A stretch of 24,456 nucleotides of DNA, taken from positions 2,052 to 26,507 of the forward strand of contig CAYGSQ010000002.1 in the NCBI GenBank assembly GCA_964352435.1, written 5' to 3'. Numbering within the stretch: position 1 is the first letter of the stretch; the number at the start of each line of letters is the position of its first letter. The stretch is from an uncultured Gammaproteobacteria bacterium. GTDB lineage: Bacteria; Pseudomonadota; Gammaproteobacteria; Steroidobacterales; JBCCMA01. The notes beneath the pieces were generated by a model. The model saw only the letters and a program-made list of their open reading frames with translations. It had not been told where the DNA came from and made no database searches. The position numbers and the translations under genes are program-made. Positions 20,711-23,136 of this stretch are shown piece after piece.

Positions 20711-21451
20711 ATGAGCGCTGTCTCGCCGCTAACCGCTTCAAGTATTATTGACCAGCTGGCCACGATGCAAGTTCCGCCGAATACGGTGCTGACTTCCGAC
20801 GGCAATGCGCTGTTTGAGGACAGCCACTACGCGATTCTGGTGACCGACCGTGGGCAGATCGACGTATTGAACAAAACGTCCGGCGAAACCTACGAGATCT
20901 GGAGCGGCATGCATTTTCGCCAAGGCACCGACGATGTCTTCGATTTTTGGGGTCACACCACGTTCAGCTTTGAAGGTGGCACCAAGGCCATCATTGAGAC
21001 AATTCCCTGGGAGGCCCGCTCTGACATGACCGTAGCGTCCGTGGTCTCCATTATCAGTGGCAACTATGGCGTACAAATTCGTGGCGTGGAACCTTTCGTG
21101 GAAGGTGATCTGTCATTTCGCACCTCGTTTGGACCGCTTCTTGACGCGTTTGTCCCTGACGGCAACACCATCTATGAAAACCCCTATGGACCGGGGTTCG
21201 TGACCGTTGGGGAGGATGGACAGCTGCACGTTGTCGACCAGAACTCATTGTCGGCAAGTGATTTACGCAATGTCGAGAAATTGGCGCCCGAAGTGCTCAA
21301 GTTTCTGCGCTTGTTCGGCGGCTTGTTAACGATCACGCTCGCTGGAAATTTCGTCTCCACCGTGCGTATTGAGACCAACTTTGAGGAAGGTGATCACAAT
21401 GATGACCGTGTACGATTGTCGCTCGGAAATCTGCCACCCGCGCTTGCTTGA
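20711..21451 (+). CDS. DUF1521/MIIA-domain paralog with degenerate cleavage site (SGMH instead of GDPH)
   Basis: GGGAGG RBS 6 nt before ATG 20711 (preferred over TTG 20705). NKxxGETYxxW, FDFWGxTTF, GTK and DMTVAS motifs; 71/147 identical, gapless, to the GDPH protein at 22399-23136 by hand alignment. Confidence 0.85.
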   Translation: MSAVSPLTASSIIDQLATMQVPPNTVLTSDGNALFEDSHYAILVTDRGQIDVLNKTSGETYEIWSGMHFRQGTDDVFDFWGHTTFSFEGGTKAIIETIPWEARSDMTVASVVSIISGNYGVQIRGVEPFVEGDLSFRTSFGPLLDAFVPDGNTIYENPYGPGFVTVGEDGQLHVVDQNSLSASDLRNVEKLAPEVLKFLRLFGGLLTITLAGNFVSTVRIETNFEEGDHNDDRVRLSLGNLPPALA

Positions 21452-21472
21452 AGCACGCTCGCCGGTGCCGCG

Positions 21473-22303
21473 TTACGGCCTGTTGATCGAACCACGCAGA
21501 CGATCGCAGTCCGGGCGTTTGCCGCGCGCCTGAGCATCCCGGTAAATCGGCATGACTTCCGGCAACCGATGATTTAGCCCCGCAATTCTTGTGCTGTGCG
21601 AGGGATGCGTCGAGGCAAACTCGGGGCGACTCGAGCCACCGTCGGCGGCCATGTTTTGCCACAGCACCGTGCTTGCGCGCGGGTCGAAGCCTGCCCGGGC
21701 CATCAGCGTCAGCCCCATGACATCAGCCTCGGCTTCGCGGGCGCGATTGTAGGGCAGCAACAGCCCGTATTGGGCGCCGATGCCAAGAGCGCTGATGATC
21801 ATGCCGCGTGAAGATGAATTCGCCATCGCTTCGCTGACAACCTGTAGTCCGGTTTGCGTGGCCAGACTGGTCGACATGCGTTCGTTCGCGTGTCGTGCGA
21901 GGACGTGTGCGATTTCATGGCCGATGACGGTTGCCAGTTGATGCTGATCTTCCGCCACGTCAAGCAGTCCTTCGTGCACGCCAATGCGGCCGCCCGGTAC
22001 CGCGAACGCGTTTGCGCTGTTGTCGGCGAACACGACCACTTGCCAGTCCACCGCGCGCTCTTCCTGCGGCATACTGCGGATCACCGAGTCGGCAACGCAG
22101 TTGACGTAGGCCGAGACGAATCCGTCGCTGACCTCCGCCGTGCTGCGCCGAATGTCATTAAACGCGCTGATGCCGAACTGGTCCACGACGGCGTCGGGCA
22201 AAAAGGTGAACTGTTGACGGCCGGTCGGTGACGTCGCGCAGGCGACCAGTGCGACCGTCAGGCCAATGAGTGCAGTGCGCACAAAGCGTGGTGATGTCGG
22301 CAT
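21473..22303 (-). CDS. M48 family zinc metallopeptidase, lipoprotein
   Basis: ANAFAVPGG, GHEIAH (HExxH), LPYNRAREAEADVMG, AGFDPRA and STHP motifs. Lipobox VALVA|C and ATSPTGRQQ after moving the start from 22363 to ATG 22303. Confidence 0.93.
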   Translation of the reverse strand: MPTSPRFVRTALIGLTVALVACATSPTGRQQFTFLPDAVVDQFGISAFNDIRRSTAEVSDGFVSAYVNCVADSVIRSMPQEERAVDWQVVVFADNSANAFAVPGGRIGVHEGLLDVAEDQHQLATVIGHEIAHVLARHANERMSTSLATQTGLQVVSEAMANSSSRGMIISALGIGAQYGLLLPYNRAREAEADVMGLTLMARAGFDPRASTVLWQNMAADGGSSRPEFASTHPSHSTRIAGLNHRLPEVMPIYRDAQARGKRPDCDRLRGSINRP

Positions 22304-22343
22304 GACCCTTTGTCCCGTGGCAACGATGCCCAAAGTATGCGAC

Positions 22344-22379
22344 AAAAAAAAGCGGCCGACCATGTGGGTGGCCGGCCGC
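22344..22379 (-). terminator. Rho-independent terminator of the GDPH-MIIA gene
   Basis: Minus strand: GCGGCCGGCCA-CCCACA-TGGTCGGCCGC followed by 8 T (11-bp stem, one G-U), about 20 nt after the TAG at 22399. Confidence 0.9.
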
Positions 22380-22398
22380 GCTACTCGTGGCGAACGTA

Positions 22399-23136
22399 CT
22401 ATAGTGATCGCACGAGATTAAGCAGGAAGTTGTTACCCGGCGTGACGGCGTCATTGAGCTCCTGGCCGGCCGACAGGCCGCTCAGGAACGCGCCAACAAA
22501 GCTGATCGCCATCAGTCCGCTGTAGGCTTCGAACAAGTTGGTGTACGGCTCAGCAAACTCGGCCAGTTTTTGTTCGTCGGTACCGTTGATAAAGGCCTGA
22601 TCGACGGTGGCCAGGGAGCCGTTGTGGTCAATGCCCAAAAAGCCCGAACCAAACGGGTTTTCGTAGAGCGTATTGCCGTCACGAATCACGAAGTCCGCCA
22701 GATCGCCGTTGACTTCGACCATGCTCAGGTCGCCGCGAGCGTTGGGATCGACGCCCGTAATGTGGACGCCAAAGTCACCGTCAGTGATGGTGACCTTCGA
22801 GGCAACGGTCATGTCTTCGTTGCCAGCCCAGGGTGTGGTTTGCATCGTGATCTTGGTGCCGTCGTCCAGCACAAAGGTAGTCGTACCCCAGAAGTCGAAG
22901 GCGTGGCTGCCATCAATCTGTACATGCGGGTCGCCCCAGACGCGGTAGGTCTCCCCGGTGTTCTTGTTGGTCGTAATGACCTCACCACCGTCGGTTACTT
23001 TGATGGTGTAGTTCTCATTTTCGAACAGAACATTGCCCTGCGCGTCACGGCCCACGGTGGGCTCGGCGGCAGGGCAGGTGCAGCAGCAGTTCTGTGCGAT
23101 GTCTGCCGCGGTGGCGGCCGATTCGATTCCACTCAT
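22399..23136 (-). CDS. DUF1521/MIIA (metal-ion-inducible autocleavage) domain protein with intact GD|PH site; probable T3SS substrate
   Basis: GETYRVWGDPHV...FDFWGTTTFVLDDGTKITMQTTPW...VTITDG is the DUF1521 signature; GDPH at 22924-22935. Start moved from 23193 to ATG 23136 (GGGAG RBS). No Sec signal peptide. Confidence 0.88.
   Translation of the reverse strand: MSGIESAATAADIAQNCCCTCPAAEPTVGRDAQGNVLFENENYTIKVTDGGEVITTNKNTGETYRVWGDPHVQIDGSHAFDFWGTTTFVLDDGTKITMQTTPWAGNEDMTVASKVTITDGDFGVHITGVDPNARGDLSMVEVNGDLADFVIRDGNTLYENPFGSGFLGIDHNGSLATVDQAFINGTDEQKLAEFAEPYTNLFEAYSGLMAISFVGAFLSGLSAGQELNDAVTPGNNFLLNLVRSL

Follow-up and report, generated by a model that had tools for sequence, protein, structure and literature searches.

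Evidence for a maintained, probably non-self-cleaving paralog of a neighbouring MIIA/DUF1521 protein in an uncultured gammaproteobacterium

The window analysed here, a stretch of 24,456 nucleotides from an uncultured gammaproteobacterium (assembly GCA_964352435.1, contig CAYGSQ010000002.1, positions 2,052 to 26,507 of the forward strand), carries two genes of the MIIA/DUF1521 family. The first, referred to hereafter as the SGMH copy (P0001; 20711..21451, plus strand), encodes a protein of 246 amino acids that lacks the cleavage motif of the family, and its ATG is preceded by a ribosome-binding site (RBS), GGGAGG, read directly at 20699..20704 (plus strand). The second, the GDPH copy (P0002; 22399..23136, minus strand), encodes a canonical family member of 245 amino acids with an N-terminal CCCTC cluster, and its ATG has a GGGAGAG Shine-Dalgarno sequence upstream. 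Both proteins exceed the gathering score of the Pfam profile PF07481 (DUF1521), which is 23.6 bits; the SGMH protein scores 52.1 bits and the GDPH protein 101.6 bits. They are 39% identical over 219 amino acids (BLASTP, E 5e-56) and are the only two DUF1521 matches in the source genome, a metagenome-assembled genome (MAG) of 611 contigs that is 74% complete. The sequencing runs that contain this DNA are marine biofilm and macroalgal metagenomes, and the listing shows no RNA-seq run with the gene. A preliminary description of the stretch had called the two genes convergent, which they are, but they are not adjacent here, as an M48 metallopeptidase gene lies between them (21473-22363, minus strand). 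Our results indicate that the SGMH gene probably encodes a maintained, non-self-cleaving paralog of its MIIA/DUF1521 neighbour.

The two proteins differ most where the canonical family member is expected to be cut. In the GDPH copy the predicted Asp|Pro self-cleavage site is G68-D69-P70-H71 (22924..22935, minus strand), and its place in the SGMH copy is taken by S65-G66-M67-H68 (20903..20914, plus strand). A recount of the ungapped alignment gave the same figures as the preliminary description: 71 of 147 residues are identical (residues 31-177 of the SGMH copy), the flanks of the motif match at 7 of 11 and 11 of 16 positions, and from the motif onward only the His is shared (1 of 12). The replacements of LDDGTK by FEGGTK and of TDGD by ISGN were also found as described. 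The GDPH motif is kept in all 120 nearest relatives of P0002, and among 51 GDPH-type relatives G68, D69, P70, H71, D81, D130 and D136 are invariant, while D75, D92 and N132 are nearly so. In the 10 proteins of the SGMH clade, the Ser, Gly and Met of the altered motif are invariant and the His is kept. These proteins have Gly at P0002 position 75, Gly, Thr or Ser at 92, Glu at 130 and a variable residue other than Asn (Val, Thr and others) at 132; D136 is kept, E141 is mostly kept and 58 other conserved positions are retained.

Cleavage at the GDPH motif has been demonstrated for NopE1 and VIC_001052 (PMC6506597, PMC9185962). The D116A substitution in the MIIA domain of Vibrio VIC_001052 abolishes it (PMC6506597), and a GAPH mutant of FCGBP stays uncleaved (PMC8267560). 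Because these substitutions block cleavage, and because no Asp-Pro bond occurs anywhere in the full P0001 sequence, we strongly infer that the SGMH copy does not cleave itself.

A second difference concerns the acidic loop D130-x-N132-x-x-G-D136...E141 (P0002 numbering), which is intact in the GDPH copy. By Pfam profile positions, loop 130-141 of P0002 matches segment 178-189 of VIC_001052, an EF-hand-like segment in which the Ca2+ site has only been modelled (PMC6506597). Eight other non-GDPH proteins in the alignment have also mostly lost D130, N132 and D136, and this joint loss with GDPH in other lineages suggests that the loop is functionally tied to cleavage. Comparison of the sequences thus suggests that the D130-x-N132 loop is the likely Ca2+ trigger site, coupled to cleavage. 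A separate feature of the GDPH copy is a CCCxC cluster at residues 17-21 (23074-23088, minus strand), conserved in the GDPH orthologues of the genus. Many GDPH-type relatives have one to four Cys at this place and the SGMH clade has none; the cluster of P0002 could be a lipidation or metal site on the 69-residue piece that cleavage would release.

Ten orthologues of the SGMH copy, 63-87% identical to it, came out of 5.8 billion proteins searched; they derive from NCBI, ENA and Logan assemblies, and all ten retain W-SGMH. Across five taxa pN was 0.10-0.20 and pS 0.71-0.80. In the pairwise Nei-Gojobori comparisons pS values were 0.65-0.80; at this level synonymous sites are saturated and dN/dS is unusable as a ratio, so a maximum-likelihood codon model was used instead. 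Omega was 0.064 for the SGMH clade, far from 1, and 0.040 for the GDPH clade. With its frames intact and a good RBS, the SGMH copy is thus maintained and is not a pseudogene, as the preliminary description had held.

Only 221 DUF1521 clusters emerged when 1.84 billion cluster representatives were searched exhaustively with the profile. The SGMH clade forms one single 50% cluster at 490 bits, and the next match falls to 181 bits. A tree built from 69 proteins shows the clade as a compact group (inner branches 0.03-0.3) that sits on a stem of 1.96 changes per site and is nested among GDPH-type proteins. Constraining it as sister to the GDPH clade of its own genus was not rejected and improved the fit a little (+4.3 log-likelihood units, p-AU 0.61). 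At 29 positions, including M67, H82 and E131, the clade is invariant for residues that are almost never seen in GDPH-type relatives. The most likely origin of the SGMH copy is therefore a duplication of the GDPH gene of its own lineage, and the simplest history that the sequences offer is a lineage-specific duplication, a burst of change and then strong purifying selection.

The two genes have stayed together. A survey of gene neighbourhoods for co-occurring GDPH and non-GDPH paralogs found a GDPH gene beside the SGMH gene, in convergent orientation, in 7 of 7 contexts with readable neighbours, namely genomes G000, G001, G003 and G004, the P0003 contig (where the partner is cut by the contig end), locus L114 and the P0010 contig. 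Four further non-GDPH proteins that were looked up (P0142, P0155, P0161 and P0165) have contigs too short, or without DNA, to show a GDPH partner. The family itself is rare: none of 399 randomly drawn further genomes of the class contains a DUF1521 gene. The 80 related loci used below were found with patterns containing WGDPHV and are biased towards GDPH-type genes.

Both genes also share a promoter or operator box, which the preliminary description had not seen and which is new here together with an element downstream of it. In the window the box reads GGGTATGTCCTAG at 20631..20643 (plus strand), 67 nt before the SGMH start codon, and GGGTTAATCCTAG at 23207..23219 (minus strand), 70 nt before the GDPH start codon. 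In each genome read, aligned upstream regions place this 13-nt box, GGGTWWDTMCTAG, 66-73 nt ahead of both start codons. A second conserved element, GTGTTCTTAT, lies 19 nt past the box of the SGMH gene (20663..20672, plus strand) and may be a -10 region; an element like GTGGTCTTAT (GTGKTSWKAT-like) follows the box by 17-20 nt in all 9 upstream regions. Four genomes together contain 8 exact copies of the box, all at the two DUF1521 paralogs, and the congener without the pair (G002) has no exact copy. Related boxes (GGGCAAACCCTAG and similar) precede 9 of 79 GDPH-type genes of other lineages, about 10 times background; Luteimonas is among the lineages that have them at DUF1521 genes. Besides the window, the loci behind the box observations are L015, L016, L017, L114 and L116. 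The idea of a general regulon box for the type III secretion system (T3SS) was unsupported in its strict form, as the genomes hold no other exact copies, exact matches being all that was searched.

The two promoters are not identical. Upstream of the GDPH gene an inverted second half-site (23226..23238, plus strand), which reads CTAGGGTTAACCC on the strand of the gene, forms a palindrome with the box; it is present at the GDPH gene in all four genomes shown and absent at SGMH promoters. Given this extra half-site, a common regulator may act more strongly on one gene than on the other. The shared box suggests that co-regulation of the paralogs has been retained, with room for different strengths.

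Association with type III secretion was examined at the level of genomes and of loci. SctC above the TIGR02516 cut-off and a second SctV (FHIPEP gene) are present in G000, G001, G003 and G004. In the better assemblies (G001, G003 and G004) these genes share a contig with the pair, at a distance of 15-21 kb. The congener G002 has no injectisome and neither DUF1521 gene. Among the 80 related loci, 13 have a GDPH-type gene within 8 kb of sctR-S-T.

AlphaFold2 gave confident beta-rich models of P0001 and P0002 with the same strand order (mean pLDDT, the predicted local distance difference test score, 79, and above 90 over most of the domain). Around the motif pLDDT reached 93-97 for the GDPH protein, against 67-69 for the SGMH protein. 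In exhaustive comparisons with VIA-align, chains containing a von Willebrand D (VWD) domain made up 17 of the top 21 structural matches to the GDPH model (Z up to 6.8), and they were placed similarly for the SGMH model; Z values overall were 5-6.8. These chains came from MUC5B, VWF, MUC2, MUC5AC, FCGBP, RGMB and vitellogenin. The best PDB sequence match of the family profile was FCGBP (E 0.0011), with WGDPH..DG..FDFxGT aligning to each VWD domain. Foldseek searches of PDB and Swiss-Prot models returned low-scoring propeller-like matches alone (template modelling score 0.15-0.25), and the Pfam VWD profile PF00094 matched neither protein at E <= 0.01. Sequence and models together suggest homology between MIIA/DUF1521 and VWD; with no PF00094 match and Z below 8 it is unproven.

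Loss of the motif is not confined to the SGMH clade. Of the domains in the 150 top-ranking cluster representatives, 115 carry GDPH; the remaining 35 or so show a wide variety of replacements. Non-GDPH members make up roughly one fifth of the clusters in the family and stem from at least five independent losses on the tree. Two of them, P0160 and P0177 (SPPQ and GPPQ), stand directly after sctRST with no GDPH gene within 8 kb. A second, independent pair of GDPH and non-GDPH neighbours is found on a MAG contig where, in two instances, a GDPH protein precedes a SGDAQ-type DUF1521 domain joined to LysM and C39/SLT/lysozyme domains. In the SGDAQ fusions (L034:8995-11154 and L031:10412-11872) the DUF1521 domain is N-terminal and is joined by LysM and C39-like peptidase, SLT or phage-lysozyme domains; a gene like that for the lysozyme inhibitor LprI is nearby and sctRST is on the same contig. 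From its domains, the SGDAQ fusion may be a T3SS-linked peptidoglycan hydrolase or antibacterial effector. Two-domain relatives that bear GDPH keep it in both domains (6 of 6 in the sample).

The preliminary description knew of no cleavable/non-cleavable pair. The literature searched likewise yielded no description of natural non-cleaving MIIA proteins, but the claim to an unprecedented pair was overstated. In FCGBP 11 of 13 VWD domains have GDPH, and VWD proteins routinely mix cleaving and non-cleaving domains (PMC8267560). Since such mixing is normal, and since about a fifth of DUF1521 clusters lack GDPH through at least five losses, with a second pair among them, the novelty of the pair is smaller than had been claimed. 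What is added to that account is the duplication history, the acidic loop lost along with the motif, the strict pairing and the shared promoter box.

Other genes accompany the pair. The M48 metallopeptidase (PF01435, 137.8 bits) is probably a lipoprotein: the annotated start of its reading frame overlaps the terminator of the GDPH gene, and a start at an internal Met gives a lipoprotein-like signal ending in the lipobox LVAC. Five of the 7 contexts have the gene between the paralogs, and G001 and L114 do not; for this reason M48 was rejected as an obligatory third component. The structure, which resembles an intrinsic terminator, is a hairpin and T-run directly after the GDPH gene (22352..22379, minus strand), with an 11-pair stem, 9 GC pairs and a T8 tail. 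Upstream of the GDPH gene is a DUF6683 gene (23244..24122, minus strand; PF20388, 61.4 bits) with a signal-peptide-like start at an internal Met. DUF6683 is the commonest conserved neighbour of DUF1521 genes, and its cluster occurs in 29 of the 80 related loci.

The window ends in the 3' part of a needle-like gene (24085..24456, minus strand) that is cut by the contig end and scores 27.3 bits with PF09392, just below the cut-off of 29.4. In congeners the full-length protein has 209-216 amino acids with a T3SS needle-like domain at its C-terminal end, and its relatives adjoin DUF1521 genes in 14 loci from several orders. These proteins (209-250 amino acids; for example L010:18330-18959) have a Gly-rich hydrophobic N-terminal half and are far longer than ordinary needle subunits. 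A conserved protein of 233-237 amino acids without a Pfam match (L010:17434-18147 in G003; L111:7412-8113) is encoded beside DUF1521 genes and sctRST in about 16 loci, and it and DUF6683 seem to belong to one small conserved module; in the source MAG its gene would fall beyond the contig end. At L114:6131-6637 a gene for a 168-amino-acid protein resembling dual-specificity/tyrosine phosphatases lies between those for an FG-GAP protein and a hydrolase, within a few kb of the pair, and the window shows no counterpart at the equivalent place.

Taken together, we favour the view that the SGMH gene encodes a maintained paralog that does not cut itself. Both paralogs would be made together and exported by the injectisome of the genus, each step being probable. 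On meeting Ca2+ the GDPH copy would split into a Cys-rich N-terminal piece of 69 residues and a C-terminal piece of 176 residues. The SGMH protein is predicted to stay in one piece, because its scissile Asp-Pro bond is gone and the otherwise invariant acidic loop is altered. The uncut twin could act as a partner subunit, be insensitive to calcium or have gained a new activity; it may also be the decoy or chaperone that the preliminary description suggested.

Several points weigh against this account. The T3SS link is a matter of co-occurrence in five related genomes that are not independent of one another. Four Luteimonas genomes (G458-G461; L028, L038, L044 and L052) have a GDPH-type gene and no SctC over the cut-off, and their GDPH-type genes adjoin housekeeping genes for homoserine dehydrogenase and a Cys/Met pyridoxal phosphate enzyme. 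The GDPH-type subfamily is thus not strictly tied to injectisome-bearing bacteria, and the link to type III secretion that the preliminary description drew holds at the genome level (four pair-bearing genomes with an injectisome, and G002 without either) but is not universal. The assignment of the acidic loop to a Ca2+ site depends on profile positions and on a VIC_001052 site that is itself a model. The sequences used to count the box are those that served to define it, so that only its absence elsewhere is informative. Finally, the SGMH and GDPH genes are convergent and form separate transcription units, the GDPH gene ending in the strong terminator-like hairpin.

The rival that survives best, which we consider possible but on balance doubtful, makes the paralogs a hetero-oligomer, for example translocon-like or tip-like, with a cleavable and a non-cleavable subunit of one fold next to each other and the SGMH copy as an obligate partner, not an independent protein. 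Translocons usually have two different subunits. The strict co-occurrence in all seven contexts and the promoter box common to both genes fit such an assembly, as does the second lineage in which a non-GDPH DUF1521 gene comes right after a GDPH one. Both window proteins conserve a moderately hydrophobic C-terminal helix (KD19 maxima 1.39 and 1.48; helix 185-217 in the model), although the segment is under the usual transmembrane threshold. NopE has been proposed by Teulet et al. as a possible stand-in for the translocon protein NopX (PMC7643967). Against an obligate partnership, P0160 and P0177 stand alone after sctRST, and 75 of the 80 GDPH-type loci have no paralog nearby, suggesting that a partner is not generally needed. 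Complex prediction for P0002 with P0001 gave a score of 0.00, which weighs neither for nor against binding.

It is less likely that the SGMH copy has acquired an activity of its own, independent of the GDPH copy, at a cleavage site rebuilt from Met67, His68, His82 and Glu131, for example to hold a transition metal. The 29 clade-invariant residues, including a Met and a His newly fixed next to the retained His, would suit this, and a long stem branch followed by constraint fits neofunctionalisation. Copper is bound by the D1 VWD assembly of MUC2 (entry 7prl), which is among the structural neighbours. However, pLDDT falls to 67-69 exactly at the rebuilt site, and the constant pairing and shared promoter favour a linked function.

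Poorer still are the prospects that the SGMH copy is processed after all, whether it cuts itself by a different chemistry or is cut by the M48 peptidase or, in trans, by its GDPH partner. His68 is retained and the M48 gene does lie between most of the pairs, but P0001 has no Asp-Pro bond, MIIA cleavage is described as intramolecular (PMC6506597) and the peptidase gene is not between the pair in G001 and L114. Moreover, M48 looks like an envelope lipoprotein, whereas the DUF1521 proteins have no signal peptide. The last reading, in which the SGMH copy is decaying after duplication or reflects an error of annotation or assembly, hardly deserves credence: the lower Pfam score (52 vs 102 bits) and one apparently frameshifted relative, P0012, speak for it, but the data contradict it, with omega at 0.064, ten intact orthologues from NCBI, ENA and Logan assemblies and a strong RBS, and the pseudogene reading of P0012 was rejected because its pilon-polished long-read contig is so ridden with indels that every gene is chopped into small open reading frames and the frameshift is assembly noise.

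A bolder reading, that the pair is a two-component secreted module, strikes us as improbable. Here calcium-cut and uncuttable subunits of a VWD-like fold would act together, for example as a T3SS translocon-like or tip-like structure, and the cleavage site would have been rebuilt as a Met/His site. If this were true, loss of MIIA self-cleavage would be a recurrent adaptive route to partner or cargo-carrying subunits, taken at least five times and once in fusion to peptidoglycan hydrolases.

Apart from that reading, the only activity known for MIIA/DUF1521 domains is self-cutting triggered by Ca2+, and a sizeable share of the family consists of non-cleaving domains that have gone unstudied. Here nature supplies the experiment: the two members of a conserved and apparently co-regulated pair are distinguished chiefly by the cut site and one acidic loop, and setting one against the other could reveal what cleavage does, the uncut state evidently being useful too. 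D130 and N132 offer biochemists a concrete candidate for the metal trigger site, and their loss in independent non-cleaving lineages points to coupling with cleavage. The shared promoter box gives a handle on the regulation of DUF1521 paralogs, and the survey supports a link between the bacterial MIIA domain and animal VWD domains.

Among known systems, the closest include NopE1 and NopE2, which are secreted through the T3SS of Bradyrhizobium diazoefficiens USDA110. They share with the window the Pfam domain, the GDPH motif of P0002, a T3SS in the genome and a gene near the T3SS cluster. NopE1 and NopE2 have two DUF1521 domains each, whereas the window proteins are single-domain, of about 245 amino acids, and end in a hydrophobic helix; if the SGMH copy is indeed uncut, the split into cleavable and non-cleavable forms lies here between two genes and not between two domains, and the SGMH copy is without the defining motif. 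VIC_001052 of Vibrio coralliilyticus, an MIIA protein in which Ca2+ induces folding and cleavage, is like the window proteins a marine, T3SS-linked DUF1521 protein. The SGMH copy resembles a natural mimic of its engineered uncleavable form D116A (PMC6506597). Unlike that mutant, the loss in the SGMH copy is natural and conserved, also removes the Gly, the Pro and residues of the acidic loop, and comes with 29 new invariant residues. The other non-GDPH DUF1521 proteins (P0160/P0177 and L031/L034) share with the SGMH copy an independent loss of GDPH, often a loss of D130, N132 and D136, and in some cases a place inside T3SS clusters. None of them falls within the SGMH clade, and they differ from it in their replacement motifs; P0160 and P0177 stand without a GDPH neighbour, and L031/L034 carry enzyme domains. 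Animal VWD domains (FCGBP, MUC2 D4, MUC5AC and RGM) have the WGDPH..DG..FDFxGT signature in common with the window proteins. In contrast to them, the window proteins are bacterial, made in the cytoplasm and cysteine-free in the domain, and the trigger of MIIA cleavage is Ca2+ rather than the environment of the secretory pathway.

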